Virus record (IMG/VR): IMGVR_UViG_3300012662_000011
DNA: 64,000 nucleotides
Origin: a virus
Taxonomy: Duplodnaviria > Caudoviricetes
Reading direction: 5' to 3' (one strand)
Each line of letters starts with the position of its first letter. Position 1 is the first letter of the stretch. This document shows, one piece after another, positions 3,692-36,019 of this stretch. A model generated the notes under the pieces. The model saw nothing but the letters and a program-made list of their open reading frames with translations. It was not told the DNA's origin and searched no databases. The translations under genes and the position numbers were made by a program.

Positions 3692-4495
3692 TTAAACATT
3701 CATTGTCAGTTCCCCATCGTCAGATAGGGCAAATCTGTTCTCATCACCGCCCTGAATACTCACTTGCAGTGTCATATCGGCTTCGTCAACATCAAAGGTA
3801 GGATAATCCACCGTTCCCTTGCTGTAATATTCAGTCCTCACATACTCGTCTGTGGTTTCGTCCCACTTCATCCAGTAGCCATCCTCGCCAATAATATTCG
3901 GGTGGTCGGCTTGATTCTTGGCTCGTTCGGTCTGATGCTTGCACTCCTCGTTCTGTTCCTCCCTTGCAAGCTCGGCTTTCTTTCTTGCTTCCTCGGCTTC
4001 GGCACGCTGTTTTTCCGCCTCGGAAACGGAATCCACAAAGTCGGATGCAGGCTTCCGTAGCCATGCGTAGTAGTCTTCGAGCGTTCCCTTGTTACCGTCG
4101 AGCAGCCAAAGGTCGTAGGCACTCATGCCGGGGATGCCGACAAGGACGTTGCTCTCTAAGCTAACCATAAAATCCTCGAAGTCCACATCATCGTCTGTCT
4201 CCTCGCAGGAATGGGCGACAAGCGTAAAGGCTTGGTCGGCACAGATGGTTTTCTCGGGAGAGCCTGTTGTGGCATCGTTGAGGATTACGGCACGAGAGCC
4301 AGTGCTCTTCTGCATGGATGCAGGGTAGAGGAATGTTATCACGCATCCCGATATTGTGAAGTTCGTTATCTCTTGTTTCTGGTAGGCGGAACGGACGTAT
4401 AGCTTCAGCGTTCTGCCTTCAAGACTTACGGCTTCGCCGTTTGTCTTTACTTCCCACGACACTTGAATGTCGTTGCCGATTCTGATTTTTCGCAT
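3692..4495 (-). CDS. Baseplate/tail-fibre attachment protein (start re-called at 4495, MRKIRIGNDI)
   Basis: GMSAYDLWL...GTLEDY motif common in phage tail proteins; the ORF-track N-terminal extension runs through an intergenic repeat. Confidence 0.6.
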   Translation of the reverse strand: MRKIRIGNDIQVSWEVKTNGEAVSLEGRTLKLYVRSAYQKQEITNFTISGCVITFLYPASMQKSTGSRAVILNDATTGSPEKTICADQAFTLVAHSCEETDDDVDFEDFMVSLESNVLVGIPGMSAYDLWLLDGNKGTLEDYYAWLRKPASDFVDSVSEAEKQRAEAEEARKKAELAREEQNEECKHQTERAKNQADHPNIIGEDGYWMKWDETTDEYVRTEYYSKGTVDYPTFDVDEADMTLQVSIQGGDENRFALSDDGELTMNV

Positions 4496-23500: not shown

Positions 23501-26500
23501 TCGATATTTTGGCAAAAGACCAGGATATTGACAATATGATAAACCAAATCAAAAATAGCTACGATGATTTAAGTTGGACATCTAAACAATATTATAAAAC
23601 TTTAGCAGAAGGGCGTAAAGAGGGAGAAAACGACCTTGACTACTATCAAAGAATGGTAGATGTTATTAATAAAATAAGAAAATTTGAAGGTGCGCGCTCT
23701 CCTCTTAGTGATGCTTTTAATGACTTCGCAGGTAAGGGTATTATCAAGGATTTTGGTACTCTTAAAGACCAAGCTAAAGAGTTTGAGAATGAACTCGATA
23801 AGGTTATGGGGTATGTTAAAGAAAAGGGCTATGATAAACAGACCATAAAACTTCTTATAGATAGAACTGCTGCCGATCATGAATGGAGTCAGTATGCAAG
23901 AGATATGGCATATAAGCATTTCGATATACCTCTCAATATCGACAAGAAATCAGTAATGGATGATATATCGTGGGTCGATTTATATATCGCAGATTTCTTC
24001 AAAAAGAAAAGATATGGTATCAAGTTGTCTGTTACAGAATTAGAAAACACAGCCGCCGCTGATGAGTGGCTGACTAAAAGTAAGACTGCAGCAGAAGCCG
24101 CAAAGAAATGGAAAGAGGTTTACGATCAAATATCAAAGAAAAATGGCGATGCTCTCCCTGTGTCGGGGACTTTAAAAGATATGCTAAAAGGAACGTTGTA
24201 TGAAAACCAAAGCTCTATTTCGAAAAAAGAAATGCTAAGCATCTTAAAGCAGAGGATTAAAGAGAGTACGGCTTATTCAAAAAAAGCATACGGTGTAGAT
24301 CCTTTTGAAAAAGAAAATAATAAGGCAGCAAAACAGCAAGCAAAAGAGCAGCGTGATATTTTACAAGAGCGCATTTCTTTGATAAAAGACATGAACTCAA
24401 AATACAACGAGTTGATAAAAACAGAAACAAAAGAAGCTGCTCTATCTAAAACTCGTAAATATTTTAAGGAAGCAGCACAAAATGTAGGATGGAACGCATA
24501 CAACATTTTACCTGATGATAAGTCGGCTGCAAAACAAATAGAAAATCTCGGAAAGCAGTATAAAGAGATTTCAAAGAAGGGCAATGCTTTTAGAGTTGCC
24601 GCAGATATAAAACTTAACGTCTCACAAAAGGAGTACGAAAAGATGAAGGAGGATATTTCACGCAATATAGATGAAACATTCTCTGAACTTGACTTATACA
24701 AGAAACTCAAAAAAGAAGGATTGTCAGATAATATCATTAAGGGAATATTTGGCGATATTACAACGTCTTTTGATGATTTACAAAGTCGTATCGATGATGA
24801 GTTTAATAAATATATTACACGAGCCTACGAGGAAAAATACGGAAAAGATTACAGCAAATGGGGTCAAGATGTAATTGATCAGTATAACAAAGAGCTCGCT
24901 AATACATCTGCTTATATTGGTAATTACGGAGAAGATGTGGCTAAAGCCTACAAAGACAAATCACAGAAGGTAAACGAAAAAGTCAAGCAAGATACTATTG
25001 ATACATTTTCTGAACTGACAAAGGCTTACAAAACACAACTATCAGACCAATTACAACTCGACACGTGGTATATAGAAGAAAGAGGCAAAATACAAGAGAA
25101 TGAAAATCTTGCAAAAAATCCCCAATTAAAAAAACAGTATCAAAATAATCTCAACAAACAGTATAAACAAAAGACAGATGAGAACACCTGGAAGGACTTC
25201 ACGGGAAAAGACTCATATATCGAGCTATTCCAAAATGTTGAACAGGTATCTGTGGTGGCTATAAACAATATGCTGGCACAACTTGAAAGGATGAAAGATG
25301 CTCTTAAAAACCTGCCGCCCGACAAACTGAAAGCAATCGTAGAGCAAATGGATAAACTCAAAGAAGAGAAAGCAAACCGTTATCCCTTCTTGGGTATTGC
25401 TGAATCCATTAACGAAATAACAAAAGCTCAAAAAAATTATTCAAAAGCAAAAGAAGCATACGATAAAGGGTTCGATGAAGCTCAAACAAAAACGAATAAT
25501 GCATATAAGGAGTACTTGGAACTCTTAAAAGAAGCTAAAGAGATAGAAGAAGATGATAATGCATCCAAAGAAGACAAAGAGGCTGCAAAACAGCGCGCTA
25601 TAGAAGCACAAGAAAAATACAATAAAGCGTTGGAAAAATCAAGCTCTCTACAAGAGAACTACTCCGGCTCTTCACAAAAACTTTCTACAGCATGGTTGCG
25701 CCTTGCAGATAGAACAAAGAAAATAGGTACATATATAAGTTCTTGTACCAAAAATATTTCTGCACTATCGAACGCATTAACCGGTAAGGCTTCAAGTAGT
25801 ATTACAAAATGGGGAGACGCAATAGAACAGACGGTTGGAGGACTTTCTGATGCGGTAAAAGCTTTTAAAGACCTTAAAATTTCCGCAAAAAACAATCTTG
25901 GTGACGTCGCTGATAAATCTTCTGATCTTACATCCGATGTAGGACAGGCGGCAACAAAAACTATTGACACAATAGATAAAACAGTAGAAGGAGCTGCTGG
26001 TGCTATGGTTTCGACTTCCGCCACGGCTTCCGCAGCAATCCAAACAGTCGAGAAGGCATCTGTTATTCTTGCTATTATCTCTGCCGCATTACAAATAGCA
26101 ATAGCTATTGCTAATCTGTTTAATGATGAAAGTGATATAGATGAAGAAATAGAACGCCAAGAAAGGCTTGTTAATGATTTACAGCACTCCTACGAAAAGC
26201 TTAAAAAATCAATGGACGATGCTTTCAAGATAGACGATTTACAAAAATTCAACCATCAATCCATAGATGCACTGGAAAAGCAAAAAAATGCGTATAACGC
26301 TATGATTAAAGCAGAGGAAAGTCGTAAGAACTCTGACAAGTCTAAGATACAGGAATATAAACAAAAAATTGAAGATCTTGATGATACAATCAAAGAGTTA
26401 AAAGAAACCATGACAGAAGAACTTGGAGGCTTTGGTTCGGAAGCCAATTATAAGGCAGCAGCCGAAGCTTTTGCAGAAGCATGGGTAGATGCTTTCAATG

Positions 26501-27099
26501 AGGGTAGTGATACCCTTGACGCTCTAAATGATAAATTCGATGAGTATATTCAGAATCTTATAACAAAGCAAGCAACACAAAGGGTTGTCGGAAGACTTCT
26601 TGAACCATTGCTTAAAGAGATAGACAACGCTGTTTCTGAGGGCAGTGAGGGTGGAAGTAATGGACTTGAGCTTACATCTACAGAACTCGAAAAGATAAAG
26701 AAACTCGGCTCACAGACTACAGAGCAAATAAATAAAACTTTAACAGATCTTGCCAACGTTTTAAATTTTAAAGGTAGTGGAAGTACAAGTTTGTCATCCT
26801 TACAGCAGGGTATCCAGTCTGTATCGGAAGCTACAGCGCAAGCCCTTGAGTCTATATTGAATAGCATGAGGTACTATTTGGCACAGCAACAGGCAGACGT
26901 GAGAACCATTAGAGATACCTTATTGGAAAGATTAGGTAACACTATCACATCTGTAACACAAGACACAGCCAGTTCTCCTATTCTTGTAGAATTAAGATTA
27001 CACACCGGTCTACTAACAGACATACGTGATACCTTGGATGCATGTGTTAAAACAGGACACAAACAGGGACGTAGTGGTATAAAGGTTTTTATGAATTAA
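20557..27099 (+). CDS. Tape measure protein (2180 aa)
   Basis: Long coiled coil; tape-measure domain (AVKSPF...LADVSAG...LAYGQV...TLQGKISNLKDAF). Confidence 0.92.
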   Translation: MADISAIGSALVIDEKVLNRIKEADDRLVSLQKTADDTAKKIGASFKGMSDSVNPFLTSLDSIITKLGNISTAATNASGGLSQVKTNIGNINSGTTQTTQGIADLVNQLSQIGGKGASGVMQAVYAFQRLQESMKGSSGMNIAQLTEAINDIDKKLKDTENLLTKSEQDALVKRKALLQDELKEQQRTYEERVIAFQKAIDKMTSAQAAYNQKQQKNKVNTAAQATEKEIEQLEAKFRNMKAPDFGQTYEKIQQLKAELKSVKEEFSSTLAKIIEQDNLKAGKTNSAPALKKGEYQEMQHTIGVLGDKERSLQAEIDALTEKIKKENAAWREQRQALAENIEMLKNLKAYKSDSTSLDNQRSQNTLAEMRQYYKELEKTSQQALKADIKAVEEEEKLAERRKKAWEKANQSTNTYGQQYHNDRQKMYEQVFSSQNTTTSMALANSSSVKTLREHVAAIKELQQARLNLDTTDKNYKQNLEAVNNAIKQHSKVLRDAGVNARSLGEQTSYLSGYISRLAQRTAVVFSMSAAKGFVEQIAEVRGQFELSERSLEAILQNKPKADEIFNKTVELAVKSPFRIKDLVDYTRQLSAYRIQGDKLYDTTKRLADVSAGLGVDMGRLILAYGQVKAAAYLRGSEVRQFTEAGINMYGELQSYFKEVKGEAYTTAQIVDMISKHKVTFEDVEAIFQRMTDKGGTFYNMQEIQAETLQGKISNLKDAFDVMLNDIGKENQGAFTTMIDLANSLLKHWRGFSEILLQVIAGFAGMKLKSMGVFDSIKKAFSSMMTSMKAQTAGFYVTMRTNGWKAAFADTFKSMGAAIKSMGAALKSISFVAILQGIMEIWSAYSKYSEAVEKANSEYVKERGYLSGLRDDFNNLTTETNNAANAQKRLTDNTANIEAQRKVLQTLIDKMNQQGFDIKINVDTLNEKELKSKFEEVSKEYEKFQRDVMTIQKNVAENSAWNAWYTLSDDINKDAKDYTNAALDILAKDQDIDNMINQIKNSYDDLSWTSKQYYKTLAEGRKEGENDLDYYQRMVDVINKIRKFEGARSPLSDAFNDFAGKGIIKDFGTLKDQAKEFENELDKVMGYVKEKGYDKQTIKLLIDRTAADHEWSQYARDMAYKHFDIPLNIDKKSVMDDISWVDLYIADFFKKKRYGIKLSVTELENTAAADEWLTKSKTAAEAAKKWKEVYDQISKKNGDALPVSGTLKDMLKGTLYENQSSISKKEMLSILKQRIKESTAYSKKAYGVDPFEKENNKAAKQQAKEQRDILQERISLIKDMNSKYNELIKTETKEAALSKTRKYFKEAAQNVGWNAYNILPDDKSAAKQIENLGKQYKEISKKGNAFRVAADIKLNVSQKEYEKMKEDISRNIDETFSELDLYKKLKKEGLSDNIIKGIFGDITTSFDDLQSRIDDEFNKYITRAYEEKYGKDYSKWGQDVIDQYNKELANTSAYIGNYGEDVAKAYKDKSQKVNEKVKQDTIDTFSELTKAYKTQLSDQLQLDTWYIEERGKIQENENLAKNPQLKKQYQNNLNKQYKQKTDENTWKDFTGKDSYIELFQNVEQVSVVAINNMLAQLERMKDALKNLPPDKLKAIVEQMDKLKEEKANRYPFLGIAESINEITKAQKNYSKAKEAYDKGFDEAQTKTNNAYKEYLELLKEAKEIEEDDNASKEDKEAAKQRAIEAQEKYNKALEKSSSLQENYSGSSQKLSTAWLRLADRTKKIGTYISSCTKNISALSNALTGKASSSITKWGDAIEQTVGGLSDAVKAFKDLKISAKNNLGDVADKSSDLTSDVGQAATKTIDTIDKTVEGAAGAMVSTSATASAAIQTVEKASVILAIISAALQIAIAIANLFNDESDIDEEIERQERLVNDLQHSYEKLKKSMDDAFKIDDLQKFNHQSIDALEKQKNAYNAMIKAEESRKNSDKSKIQEYKQKIEDLDDTIKELKETMTEELGGFGSEANYKAAAEAFAEAWVDAFNEGSDTLDALNDKFDEYIQNLITKQATQRVVGRLLEPLLKEIDNAVSEGSEGGSNGLELTSTELEKIKKLGSQTTEQINKTLTDLANVLNFKGSGSTSLSSLQQGIQSVSEATAQALESILNSMRYYLAQQQADVRTIRDTLLERLGNTITSVTQDTASSPILVELRLHTGLLTDIRDTLDACVKTGHKQGRSGIKVFMN

Positions 27100-27106
27100 A
27101 TATCTT

Positions 27107-27145
27107 AAACGAGGTACAAGGTTTTACATCTTATACCTCGTTTTT
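27107..27145. terminator. Bidirectional intrinsic terminator between convergent operons
   Basis: AAACGAGGTAcAAG...CTTaTACCTCGTTTT inverted repeat with flanking A/T runs. Confidence 0.75.
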
Positions 27146-27289
27146 GCTATATCCTGTATACAGTGATAATATAACGCACATTCCGTTAGCTGCAATCCCC
27201 TTGTGCATTGTAGCCAATACCGCTCTCGCTTTGTCGTTTGGAGATGTAATATTGCCCCAAATCTTCTCAATATCTTTATCTGTCCTCAT
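27131..27289 (-). CDS. TRD-like mini-ORF m11 (52 aa, intact, no tract)
   Basis: Hand translation: MRTDKDIEKIWGNITSPNDKARAVLATMHKGIAANGMCVILSLYTGYSKNEV. Confidence 0.75.
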   Translation of the reverse strand: MRTDKDIEKIWGNITSPNDKARAVLATMHKGIAANGMCVILSLYTGYSKNEV

Positions 27290-27420
27290 AGCGTTCAAAA
27301 ATATATGTTACACCATTATTGCCACCACCCTTATACATGGTAGCACAAAGGGTAACGGATTTCTCTCGCCCCCCCCCGAAGCTGCTTGTGGATTAAATCC
27401 AATTGATGCTTTGCTGTCAT
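27276..27420 (-). pseudogene. TRD-like mini-ORF m10, frameshifted at G9 (27369-27377); in frame at G8
   Basis: With G8: MTAKHQLDLIHKQLRGGREKSVTLCATMYKGGGNNGVTYIFERYEDR. Confidence 0.75.
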
Positions 27421-27572
27421 TGCTCTCTTAATTCTAAAACAAACGGACGTAGGTCAAAACCACCCACTCCATGAGAATAATAAGCGGTAAGAGTTCCGCA
27501 TTTCTCTCGGGGGGGGGTATGTATAACTATTGACTTATATAAAGTCGGATAAAAAACTAATCTATGTTGCAT
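27417..27572 (-). CDS. TRD-like mini-ORF m9 (51 aa), in frame at C9 (27509-27517)
   Basis: MQHRLVFYPTLYKSIVIHTPPREKCGTLTAYYSHGVGGFDLRPFVLELREQ. Confidence 0.75.
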   Translation of the reverse strand: MQHRLVFYPTLYKSIVIHTPPREKCGTLTAYYSHGVGGFDLRPFVLELREQ

Positions 27573-27716
27573 AAACTTCTAATATGTAAGGTCTGTAACC
27601 TCTTGTATCATATCCTTTATGGTATGACGCTTCTATACCCCCCCGATAGAATATTCCACCGAAGAGAAAGTCCTTAGTCCTCCGTTAACCTGAGGATGTA
27701 CTTGGTATTTTCTCAT
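27562..27716 (-). pseudogene. TRD-like mini-ORF m8, frameshifted at G7 (27638-27644); in frame at G8
   Basis: With G8: MRKYQVHPQVNGGLRTFSSVEYSIGGGIEASYHKGYDTRGYRPYILEVYAT. Confidence 0.75.
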
Positions 27717-27846
27717 ACAAACTTAAAATTATAGCCCTTACATTCCTGTTCGGGTCGCAACCCTTCCAATCATTCGCCATCAAAGCTTGACATTTTCTTT
27801 TTTTTGTCTGCCACGGCTTGAAATGGTCAAGTAGATATTCTCTCAT
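27685..27846 (-). CDS. TRD-like mini-ORF m7 (53 aa), in frame at A8 (27798-27805)
   Basis: MREYLLDHFKPWQTKKRKCQALMANDWKGCDPNRNVRAIILSLYEKIPSTSSG. Confidence 0.75.
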   Translation of the reverse strand: MREYLLDHFKPWQTKKRKCQALMANDWKGCDPNRNVRAIILSLYEKIPSTSSG

Positions 27847-28027
27847 AAACTTCAAGTAAATAATTTATCTGCCCTCCCGACATTACGGAACTTGTTTTCG
27901 CATCTGGTCTACAGGAGTAAGCAAGCAGGGTGCATCTTGTGCCATATTTCCGTTCACCTAAAGAATATTCTTTCCATACCTTTTTGCCGAGTTCTGTGCG
28001 ATATTGATTAAGTATTCGTTTTCTCAT
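27827..28027 (-). CDS. TRD-like mini-ORF m6 (66 aa, intact, no tract)
   Basis: ORF track; ...RPDAKTSSVMSGGQINYLLEVYE; paralog of m0. Confidence 0.75.
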   Translation of the reverse strand: MRKRILNQYRTELGKKVWKEYSLGERKYGTRCTLLAYSCRPDAKTSSVMSGGQINYLLEVYERIST

Positions 28028-28172
28028 GCAATTCTAACACCTTTATTCCTAAACCACCGCCTGTGTCCGTTTGGCAGCAAATTGCCCCCCCGTGAACAGA
28101 ATAGAACCTATGCCGTTGTCTTGCGGTGTTTCCCCACTCATGGTTGCCGTTTAATTGTATCGGTTTTGTCAT
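28008..28172 (-). CDS. TRD-like mini-ORF m5 (54 aa), in frame at G7 (28085-28091)
   Basis: MTKPIQLNGNHEWGNTARQRHRFYSVHGGAICCQTDTGGGLGIKVLELHEKTNT. Confidence 0.75.
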   Translation of the reverse strand: MTKPIQLNGNHEWGNTARQRHRFYSVHGGAICCQTDTGGGLGIKVLELHEKTNT

Positions 28173-28314
28173 AAAGTATTATTAATGTATTATCCTTTGC
28201 CACAGAAGTAAGGAAACTTGACTTTTGCCCTCTAAGCTCCAAACTTTGGCGGTGTGAAGAATTATGCCACTCGCCTTCTGAACGTCCTCTAACGGCTGCT
28301 GTATTAACTCTCAT
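28138..28314 (-). CDS. TRD-like mini-ORF m4 (58 aa, intact, no tract)
   Basis: MRVNTAAVRGRSEGEWHNSSHRQSLELRGQKSSFLTSVAKDNTLIILYDKTDTIKRQP. Confidence 0.8.
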   Translation of the reverse strand: MRVNTAAVRGRSEGEWHNSSHRQSLELRGQKSSFLTSVAKDNTLIILYDKTDTIKRQP

Positions 28315-28436
28315 AAAGTTTCAATAAACAATCGCTTTGCGAATTATTCCCCGCTCCGTGAGAACCCACACATAAAGCTGTTGCCTTATTAGATTTTGCA
28401 AGCCCCCCCCCTACGGCTAATCTTAATTTCTCTCAT
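28304..28436 (-). pseudogene. TRD-like mini-ORF m3, frameshifted at G9 (28403-28411); in frame at G8
   Basis: With G8: MREIKISRRGGLAKSNKATALCVGSHGAGNNSQSDCLLKLYES. Confidence 0.75.
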
Positions 28437-28605
28437 AAACTCTGATTATATACCCCCCCCGATGCGCTGTCTGTAAACACTGATGCTTTACAGAAACAAA
28501 TGATATTGTACCAAATTCCGTAAGACTTCCTTTATGTCCGTCATTTTGATAGGGTCTTAATCCGTCTTCGGTAACTGATACACCATGTAATCTACATCCT
28601 TTCAT
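28423..28605 (-). CDS. TRD-like mini-ORF m2 (60 aa), in frame at G8 (28453-28460)
   Basis: ORF track; ...KHQCLQTAHRGGYIIRVYERN. Confidence 0.75.
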   Translation of the reverse strand: MKGCRLHGVSVTEDGLRPYQNDGHKGSLTEFGTISFVSVKHQCLQTAHRGGYIIRVYERN

Positions 28606-28739
28606 ATATTTCTATTACTCCTGAATGTTGCCTGTGCCCCGGAACATACCACCAATCCTTATATCTCGTGTTCAAGGCTGCTGATTTTTCAGTGGGGGGG
28701 GGTAATACCATTACCCATATTAAACGCTTGCATCCTCAT
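28592..28739 (-). pseudogene. TRD-like mini-ORF m1, frameshifted at C9 (28694-28702); in frame at C8
   Basis: With C8: MRMQAFNMGNGITPPTEKSAALNTRYKDWWYVPGHRQHSGVIEIYERM; ATG overlaps the end of the methyltransferase gene. Confidence 0.75.
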
Positions 28740-29943
28740 ATATTTCGCGAAGTCTTTGCTGTTCCTGTTTATACCCAAACTCTGCCAGTTCATGTTTTTC
28801 ATCGTTAGACAGGTATGAGTATTCATCTGAACTATTCAACCAATCAACGACCTCATCCATACTAACTTGCGGCTCTAAAAGATAGGCTTTAAGCTTCTTT
28901 TTATCTGTCCGTTCCATAAGTTGCCGAACGGTAGCATCTTTCAGATAATATTTTTCATCCGCCTTTTCTTGCAGTATATCCTTGATTACAAGCCCTCTGT
29001 CTTCTGGTTGTGGAATATCCGTTTGCAATGGGGGCAAGGCGAATGGATCCTTGTCGTCATAGAACAAAGAGTCTCCCGCAACTTCCTTTGTCCTTATGTT
29101 AGTCCAATATATACGTCTTCTGTTTTGTGCCGATACCAAAGCGGAATTGATATGAACGCCACGCACACCGATAGCATGGGAAAGACACCTTTCCCACTTC
29201 TCCAACATCTTGACGTTTTCAAGAAAGAAATAAATATCCGGATTATACTTAAGCAATTCTGTAAGTATTCGCATGTATTCCCAAAATAGATAAGATTGCC
29301 CTTCAAACTGAAAGTTCTGTGATTTTAATTCAAGGTATCTATCAAGGGTGTAAATCTCTTCACCTTTCTTTGTACTCATACCTTTCATCTTGCCAGAAAA
29401 CGAAAAGTTGGTACACGGTGAACCTCCCATAATTATATCGGGAACACCATATTTTTCTACAATTTCATCAACATTCAACTCCGTTACACTACCTAACTGG
29501 ATAGTGTCAGGAAAGTTATGTTGAGTATTGGCTATTGCGTATTTATCAATTTCAGATGCAAGGTAGGTATCTATTTTTGCACCTACGCCACGGAGAGACA
29601 TTTGCCCCCCCGAAATTCCGTCAAACAATGACAAAACCTTAATACCATTCAGCTTTTCTTTTGGTATAAAGCTGAATATATGCTTAATTGTTTCAATGTT
29701 CCATCCGTTCCCCAAACCTTTATATTGCTGCGTTTCAGATGTAACAAATTCATAATCATGCGGTAATGTTTGCAATTCTGCACACTCTTGTGGAGTCAGT
29801 CTACGTATTGCAGCAACGTATTTTATTCCGTTAACCTCGAAGTCTACACCCTGTTTATTATCCGGCATAGTCTTCTTAAAATCCTCAAACTGCTTCTCTT
29901 TTACCTTGCAGTAAACCTTTCTTGCTATTTCTTCTTTTCCCAT
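28720..29943 (-). CDS. Circularly permuted C5-cytosine DNA methyltransferase with no obvious TRD
   Basis: Motif order IX (RRLTPQECAELQ), X (QYKGLGNGW), I (LSLFDGISG), IV (GGSPC), VI (FFLENV), VIII (AQNRRRIYW). Confidence 0.92.
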   Translation of the reverse strand: MGKEEIARKVYCKVKEKQFEDFKKTMPDNKQGVDFEVNGIKYVAAIRRLTPQECAELQTLPHDYEFVTSETQQYKGLGNGWNIETIKHIFSFIPKEKLNGIKVLSLFDGISGGQMSLRGVGAKIDTYLASEIDKYAIANTQHNFPDTIQLGSVTELNVDEIVEKYGVPDIIMGGSPCTNFSFSGKMKGMSTKKGEEIYTLDRYLELKSQNFQFEGQSYLFWEYMRILTELLKYNPDIYFFLENVKMLEKWERCLSHAIGVRGVHINSALVSAQNRRRIYWTNIRTKEVAGDSLFYDDKDPFALPPLQTDIPQPEDRGLVIKDILQEKADEKYYLKDATVRQLMERTDKKKLKAYLLEPQVSMDEVVDWLNSSDEYSYLSNDEKHELAEFGYKQEQQRLREIYEDASV

Positions 29944-30125
29944 ATATTCAATACTAAATTATCCATTATGACAGTAACAATAGTACCACTCTTTAAGTCG
30001 GGACGTACTTGATAGGAACACATGGATGAACGGTTATACCATTTGTTTCTTATTCCACTATCATACTCCTTCCGAAACATTCACCCCAACTCGTTACGAT
30101 ACTTATTTAGGATGACTTCAACCAT
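29925..30125 (-). pseudogene. TRD-like mini-ORF m0 upstream of the methyltransferase, with in-frame TGA at 30081-30083
   Basis: MVEVILNKYRNELG*MFRKEYDSGIRNKWYNRSSMCSYQVRPDLKSGTIVTVIMDNLVLNIWEKKK; aligns with m6 and has the same 201-nt length. Confidence 0.75.
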
Positions 30126-35141: not shown

Positions 35142-36019
35142 GTTGCAATCCAAACAACAACAAAACATAATACTATACACTATATATATAATTATATTAA
35201 TTTAACAATTATCGCATCTATATATATTAAAATATTTAACAATGTACGCATATAGATAAGGGTTATCATATATCTAACCATATATTATCATATAGTTCAA
35301 TATATGTGTAGACAATAGGAACAATGATAATATATGAACATATATAACCCTTATAGAAGTAAAGACATACGTGCCCTCCGGATAAAAAAACACAGCAAAA
35401 GCGAAATAAAGCGTTCTAAGACGTTTTTACACGGCAAGACCTATAATTTACCACAGAAAACATAAAACTCGCTTAAAACGACTTAAAAGTGGATTAAAAC
35501 GAATCTAACGACACGTATGTACTTGCTGAAAATAAAAAAAATAAAAAAAATTTGGAAAAGAGCGGGTTCGGGTGCTGCTCCCTGGTCGCCGGGGGGGGTG
35601 GATGCAAACTTTATACGGTGCATAATATAGGACTATAGAGCATATAATAGCGAGCATATTGCAAACGAAACGAACGTTACCCACGGAATATAAGCATATC
35701 AAACGCAATATAAGCGCATATAACAGCATAATATACTGTGCACACTACATTACACGTACAAAGACCTCAAAAGACGTTACACACACTTATATTGCATGCG
35801 TATATGTACTAAGGCGAATTGCATACTATCTTACATATAACTTATCTCCAGTATACTGCAGCACTCCAATTTTGCGGTGGGAGATATTTGCGCTTACATT
35901 ACGCGACTGCAATTACATGCATATATATTATATATAATAGGTGTAAACACACGTTTTTCGCTATATTTGTCAAGATTTTAAAAAACATACGCTATTTTAC
36001 AAAGATTTTAATCAAAACT

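Follow-up and report, generated by a model that had tools for sequence, protein, structure and literature searches.

The 64,000-nucleotide stretch analysed here (IMG/VR record IMGVR_UViG_3300012662_000011, "the window") is a tailed-phage genome of gut origin. A 2180-residue tape-measure gene is encoded on the plus strand and ends at 27099. Beyond it, on the minus strand from 30125 to 27131, lies an array composed of a small open reading frame (ORF), m0, a 407-residue C5-cytosine methyltransferase core, and eleven further small ORFs, m1 to m11, that is twelve mini-genes in all. Eight mini-genes and the core contain a homopolymer tract whose length sets the reading frame inside the coding region. 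Among near-identical natural genomes, the lengths of these tracts vary far beyond what background mutation produces, and the array is a candidate operon for a split methyltransferase with individually switched target-recognition domains (TRDs).

The core (28720-29943, minus strand) is identified by a PF00145 match (E 8e-38), by split PHROG matches, and by alignment with 11 relatives. In the resulting alignment of 12 cores, motifs I (FxGxG), IV (PC), VI (ENV), VIII (QxRxR), IX, and X are invariant. In Pfam and PHROGs, the C-terminal portions of methyltransferase profiles align to core residues 17-121 and the N-terminal portions to residues 97-300. Because the N-terminal ~120 residues match profile C-termini and the following region matches N-termini, the core is circularly permuted, with motifs IX-X preceding I-VIII. 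The chain starts with ~45 amino acids (aa), followed by motifs IX-X, motifs I-VIII, a linker, and an acidic tail. No TRD is found in the window's core polypeptide in the 12-core alignment, the TL..KG unit occurring only in the mini-ORFs, and the chain is open exactly at the usual TRD position in a permuted core. At its C-terminus, the core carries the Tyr-Glu motif that also closes the modules described below. A G7 tract (coding strand; 29605-29611, minus) encodes the Gly-Gly of motif I. Its length is 7, 8, or 9 in near-identical assemblies: it is 8 or 9 in five of ten independent assemblies and in two of four sequencing runs, and gene callers split the enzyme into two fragments in those five assemblies. 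Judged by its reading frames, this tract appears to be an ON/OFF switch for the whole enzyme, hence a putative master switch. That about half of the natural assemblies have the enzyme OFF would at least agree with methylation being sometimes costly.

Each module possesses its own ATG and stop codon, out of frame with its neighbours, and the module peptides are 43 to 66 aa long. The upstream module, m0 (29925-30125, minus), is a TRD-like paralogue of m6. A module hidden Markov model (HMM), built from the 11 downstream modules m1-m11, matches the same position in relatives. The m0 frame harbors an in-frame TGA at codon 15 (30081-30083) with an ATG immediately after it (30078-30080), and its end overlaps the methyltransferase start. 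The near-identical assembly L083 has one base fewer in the G4 beside this TGA.

The downstream modules are all on the minus strand; their tracts are given here in coding-strand letters, followed by the range of lengths found in near-identical assemblies. Module m1 (28592-28739) carries C9 at 28694-28702 (7-10) and is OFF, with ON at 8. It is followed by m2 (28423-28605, 60 aa), ON with G8 at 28453-28460 (6-10), and by m3 (28304-28436), OFF with G9 at 28403-28411 (6-9) and ON at 8. Then come the tract-free m4 (28138-28314, 58 aa), m5 (28008-28172, 54 aa), ON with G7 at 28085-28091 (5-8), and m6 (27827-28027, 66 aa), also tract-free. The only A tract among them is that of m7 (27685-27846, 53 aa), ON with A8 at 27798-27805 (7-10, and 7-9 in the ten independent assemblies). 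The array ends with m8 (27562-27716), OFF with G7 at 27638-27644 (7-9) and ON at 8; m9 (27417-27572, 51 aa), ON with C9 at 27509-27517 (7-9); m10 (27276-27420), OFF with G9 at 27369-27377 (7-11) and ON at 8 or 11; and m11 (27131-27289, 52 aa), tract-free in this genome. The ON length of each of the nine tracts was defined by translation, and the states were assigned by translating all three frames and editing the tracts. Once its tract is set to 8, each of the four OFF modules yields an ORF that ends in hydrophobic-x-hydrophobic-Tyr-Glu and overlaps the next ATG.

Counting all homopolymers of the window yields ten G or C runs of at least 7 and none of length 6. In plus-strand letters, they are C9 at 1767, C9 at 27369, G9 at 27509, C7 at 27638, C7 at 28085, C9 at 28403, C8 at 28453, G9 at 28694, C7 at 29605, and G8 at 35591. 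Seven of the ten fall within 27369-28702, each in its own mini-ORF, the remaining three being those at 1767, 29605, and 35591. The original prediction, made from the letters alone, had listed seven runs of 7-9 nt in this segment, one per module, and, by eye, three others in the window, and both figures are reproduced by the count. Its assignment of states, with the A8 of m7 ON and m4, m6, and m11 devoid of tracts, likewise agrees with the translations, and its claim that length 8 restores the four OFF modules holds upon tract editing. In 200 first-order Markov simulations that preserve the window's dinucleotide composition, a 64-kb sequence contains on average 1.3 such runs and at most 4, and the Poisson probability of at least seven runs in 1334 nt is ~2e-15. 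The tracts are composed of GGG and CCC codons; in the long ORFs of the window, no Gly codon is rarer than GGG (9%) and no Pro codon rarer than CCC (14%). This use of the rarest codons, together with the absence of any length-6 G/C run in the window, points to selection for long runs.

Variation of the tracts in nature is documented by two sets of sequences. Four public runs from one study contain the phage at >99% identity; every indel listed for them between 27100 and 29950 lies inside a run of at least 7, and none is found in the A6 run or in any 5-mer of that interval. Ten further independent assemblies, located via the exact m11 protein and covered 4.5x to 4600x, share 99.0-100% identity with the window across 6.5 kb. 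Across these 14 assemblies, 99-100% identical, tract lengths extend from 5 to 11, and the ON/OFF pattern is distinct in each of 11 genomes (the ten assemblies and the window). One contig matches the window without a single substitution and still differs from it at two tracts. Net indels outside tracts in the operon are restricted to a single base, in the G4 beside the m0 TGA, in a single contig. The tracts of near-identical assemblies are therefore neither fixed nor invariant, either of which the original prediction had named as its refutation. Its figure of 2^7 = 128 combinations does not stand, since the A8 of m7 also varies and a master switch lies in the catalytic gene. The state space is that of eight module switches plus the core switch, the run at 29605, first counted as a mere "other" run, being the ninth. 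Breaks of Logan contigs at tracts, considered as a sign of within-sample heterogeneity, were left uncounted; at 3-13x depth, breaks occur elsewhere too.

When aligned, the modules display a common Lys-small-x-(Thr/Ala)-Leu-x-Ala...Lys/His-Gly core, followed by a C-terminal hydrophobic-x-hydrophobic-Tyr-Glu strand. A TL-containing start is conserved in the TRDs of C5-methyltransferases such as M.HhaI and phage enzymes. Module m11 matches one fused TRD unit of an enzyme from a crAss-size phage, with 57% identity over 28 aa and a pairwise BLASTP E of 2e-8. The motif, the m11 match, the tandem units found in fused enzymes, and the fusion of a module to the core in some relatives (L009-L011) concur, and on these sequence grounds the modules are classed as homologues of C5-methyltransferase TRDs, in keeping with the TRD peptides of the original prediction. 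The module HMM finds the arrays of close relatives and detects none of the fused TRDs of crAss-size enzymes at E<1, so that the link to the latter is carried by the m11 pairwise match and the shared motif. Structure prediction is not used as evidence. A complex of the core and m11, both supplied as alignments, scored 0.29 for a mark of 0.32 and was not used either way, and an AlphaFold2 prediction of the L009 TRD-core fusion from a 14-row alignment is a poor model (mean predicted local distance difference test 62, TRD region <35).

Relatives retrieved by searching viral contigs with the core fall into a permuted (L001-L023) and a non-permuted (L024-L075) group. All 23 members of the former have a permuted, TRD-less core with at least one module alongside, the number of modules ranging from one to twelve. 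Start codons and overlaps are conserved in relatives whose cores are just 63-84% identical. In L009-L011 (3845-5203), upstream module and core N-terminus are joined in frame into a polypeptide of 453 aa. In L012-L017, the upstream module has its own G6-G9 tract just ahead of the core start (~3908-3913). At orthologous tract positions, lengths of 6 to 9 are found, a single length class being in frame. Some orthologues are "locked" ON, their tract being interrupted by substitutions, and the m11 orthologues of L002, L003, L018, and L022 bear a C6-C8 tract. Other relatives (L019 and L006-L008) are tract-free and exhibit runs of intact, separate, overlapping mini-ORFs; in L019, an ORF walk followed seven of seven intact.

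The non-permuted group comprises mostly contigs of 50-150 kb (crAss size), with a core 50% identical. Their enzymes harbor 2-4 TRD units in tandem fusion between motifs VIII and IX, the count varying by contig, and no G/C tract is found in these fused enzymes. Fused and detached TRD forms coexist among related phages. In the same group, an A8-A10 run of varying length lies ~8-15 nt upstream of the methyltransferase ATG (~3984-3995 of the locus). A non-permuted homologue also occurs in cultured Bacteroides uniformis phages, Bacuni_F1 (MT635598, L078), F4, and F2 (L089, L090). In GenBank, it appears as two methyltransferase fragments ~530 nt apart (L078 1522-2990), and the unannotated gap contains TRD-like ORFs and three poly-G tracts (G10/G8/G8). 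Of these tracts, the first differs between isolates: F1 and F4 have G10 and F2 has G9, a length at which the first fragment continues through one TRD-like unit. A DNA-level match, Phocaeicola phage BV57P1, was set aside as it has an ordinary one-piece enzyme.

Taken together, these features suggest an operon for a split multispecific C5-methyltransferase, in which TRD peptides act in trans and each tract toggles one peptide; we assign this reading a probability of about 0.65. In the proposed mechanism, each peptide would dock on the core in trans and supply one DNA specificity, as tandem TRDs do in cis. A common docking element on modules and core may be represented by the Tyr-Glu strand, present in all modules and at the core C-terminus, and is also suggested by the N-terminal fusion of L009-L011. 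Slipped-strand mispairing at replication would alter tract length and cause a frameshift, which would truncate one peptide only or, at the core tract, the whole enzyme. A phage population would thereby carry many methylation repertoires, "no methylation" among them. The separation of the TRDs into cistrons is what would allow each switch to affect one specificity while sparing the others: if several TRDs sit in one fused enzyme, a frameshift in any of them would destroy everything downstream, whereas a permuted core with separate cistrons would lose one specificity. We infer the action in trans, the attribution of one motif to each module, the independence of the switches, and a selective benefit. 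This benefit would be protection from restriction sensitive to 5-methylcytosine (5mC), traded against methylation-dependent (type IV) nucleases. The fuller form of the proposal, with free and exchangeable TRD subunits (up to a dozen, 5-7 kDa each), homopolymer switches plus a master switch, and progeny of one burst differing in their 5mC repertoires, is evenly balanced between right and wrong.

Several points weigh against a split, switched enzyme. Peptide production, core binding, and specificity are deduced from the anatomy of the array. A statistically supported match to a fused TRD exists for m11 alone, the other modules being linked to TRDs by the shared motif and by paralogy, and seven intact modules, compared with Pfam and PHROGs, could be placed in no meaningful family. 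To our knowledge, no characterised enzyme has its TRD freed at both ends as a peptide of ~50 aa. All tract lengths are those of assembly consensus sequences, not of single-molecule reads, and ~46% of tract states are ON, moderately above the one third expected for random lengths. Finally, the ORFs overlap, which might couple their translation; an OFF module might then lower downstream expression, and with such polar OFF states the switches would perhaps not be independent.

Rival readings were weighed in the order of fusion, decay, sequencing error, and cassette recombination. The first of these, in which a +1 ribosomal shift at the TATGA junctions or stop bypass appends the TRDs in cis to the core C-terminus, with the tracts still acting as switches, is unlikely. 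At each of the 12 junctions, a conserved ATG lies within the last codons of the preceding ORF, with an overlap of 4-35 nt and the consensus TATGAGA; a frameshift site would not need an ATG, which is kept at all 12 and in relatives. As a shift in cis would have it, the frame of the next ORF is +1 at all downstream junctions but m9-to-m10. This junction (an ATGA overlap) and m0-to-core are -1, and no common slippery sequence is found upstream of the junctions. The Tyr-Glu motif shared by the core C-terminus and the modules, and the fused forms of relatives, also fit a product made in cis, but eleven successive low-efficiency shifts would leave almost no product for the distal modules.

Less likely still is decay. 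The modules would then be left over from a region in which several TRDs used to be fused, the tracts would be mutational hot spots of DNA that has lost its function, and the methyltransferase would be inactive or draw its specificity from another source. Such a fate would explain the majority of OFF tract states, the nonsense codon of m0, and the core frameshifted in about half of the assemblies. The frames downstream of the tracts argue otherwise. In the m10 family (12 distinct sequences), the post-tract frame has a ratio of nonsynonymous to synonymous polymorphism (pN/pS) of 0.20 at a pS of 0.65, and in the m1 family this ratio is 0.10. Most genomes carry the OFF length in these m10 and m1 frames, at pS ~0.5-0.65, so OFF modules are not dead, their post-tract frames being under strong purifying selection. 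The m9 family value of 0.69 is unreliable, as the anchor motif began at different residues among orthologues, and divergence in the m11 family is too low for pN/pS. Decay is further at odds with the start codons and overlaps conserved in the relatives with 63-84% identical cores, with the intact mini-ORF runs of tract-free relatives, and with the use of the rarest Gly and Pro codons in tracts in a window lacking length-6 G/C runs.

Recombination of silent modules into an expression site, of the pilin or hsdS type, is very improbable. In its favour, the modules are tandem paralogues and share a short conserved sequence at their junctions, but the junction repeat is just ~7-12 nt, the core has no resident TRD or expression site, and every module has its own start codon; moreover, no recombinase adjoins the array, and no rearranged joints are found in the contigs of the four runs. 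That errors of sequencing or assembly account for the frameshifts and the differences in length, all modules being truly in frame, is excluded for practical purposes: homopolymers are error-prone on several platforms and the platform of the runs is not on record, but consensus lengths of 5 to 11, at 25x to 4600x coverage, differ in both directions between samples while the A6 run and the 5-mers show no indels, random read errors cannot displace a consensus built at 700x or 4600x by as many as three bases both ways, GenBank genomes of cultured isolates have the same kind of tracts, and no one length puts every tract in frame (ON lengths being 7, 8, or 9).

The ingredients of the proposed split enzyme are known from multispecific, permuted, split, and phase-variable enzymes, and it is their combination that is unusual. 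The closest multispecific parallels are the Bacillus phage enzymes M.SPRI, M.Phi3TI, and M.H2I (Wilke 1988, Gunthert 1987, Lange 1991; cited in PMC8936443), in which one core serves several short tandem TRDs, as here. They are phage-borne, each TRD is thought to give one target, and they are presumed to protect from several restriction systems. They carry 3-5 TRDs in one polypeptide between motifs VIII and IX, without mutable tracts, whereas the window has 12 TRDs as separate cistrons around a permuted core, eight of them with their own switch. M.(phi)BssHII (Sethmann 1999, EMBO J; reference 59 of PMC8936443) is reportedly a multispecific C5-methyltransferase from a prophage whose TRDs occupy separate sites flanking the core, the topology of m0, core, and m1-m11. 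It is reportedly a single polypeptide, unlike the operon of the window, and is not known to be phase-variable.

Naturally split enzymes are exemplified by M.AquI and M.EcoHK31I, whose activity needs two polypeptides, the second one of M.EcoHK31I being small and containing motif IX only (PMC3404938). These have one fixed partner with conserved motifs (IX, or part of the TRD plus IX and X), whereas the operon of the window would provide many alternative partners, each consisting of a TRD only. Natural two-chain enzymes and fragment complementation indicate that the C5-methyltransferase fold tolerates non-covalent assembly (PMC3404938, PMC5944983). Type H permuted enzymes (M.BssHII, M.Alw26I) have motifs IX-X before I-VIII, as in the window's core, and keep a TRD at their new N-terminus (PMC5944983); the window's core has none, and the L009-L011 fusion matches type H.

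Phase-variable methylation is known from phasevarions (Campylobacter type IIG enzyme, PMC4889913; review, PMC11868660) and from HsdS switching (PMC7394358), in which repeat changes toggle a methyltransferase or its specificity and yield mixed methylomes. These are cellular systems, mostly of N6-adenine methylation, with one switch per enzyme or recombination among two to few hsdS copies, whereas a virus here has nine tracts in one C5 system, with putative per-specificity switches and a master switch. Campylobacter phages have hypermutable poly-G tracts, reported in structural or receptor-binding genes, which generate phenotypic diversity; the tracts of the window lie in a DNA-modification system instead. 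A literature search found no report of split TRD peptides or of phase-variable phage C5-methyltransferases, its coverage being incomplete and thus weak evidence of novelty.

If the TRDs do act in trans, this would be the first C5-methyltransferase with specificity provided by interchangeable mini-subunits, functionally analogous to the HsdS of type I systems. A TRD of ~50 aa would then fold and dock alone, a property useful for engineering programmable cytosine methylation. Such a virus would encode a stochastic, combinatorial epigenetic counter-defence, and would be a clear viral case of contingency loci serving the epigenome rather than receptor-binding proteins. Phages of this kind with seemingly identical genomes would be epigenetically heterogeneous. 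The system escapes routine annotation, in which most mini-ORFs go uncalled and the enzyme is labelled as fragments or "hypothetical". The cultured Bacteroides uniformis relatives, with poly-G tracts already differing in length, make it directly testable.

Three further observations concern other parts of the window. A G9 run (coding strand; 1767-1775) is located three codons ahead of the stop of a 188-aa ORF (1757-2323, minus), itself a tandem paralogue of the ORF at 1115-1705. The three possible frames after this run lead to a 2-aa tail, an immediate stop, or a 22-aa extension, and the C-terminus of this protein may be phase-variable. The intergenic G8 run at 35591-35598 lies 40 nt from two neighbouring A8 runs (35534-35550), and the cluster (35534-35598) could be a length-variable promoter or leader element. 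Within the tape-measure gene, a patch at 24024-24148 contains most of the ~60 substitutions that separate two sublineages otherwise 99.9% identical, and it may be a small recombination tract.

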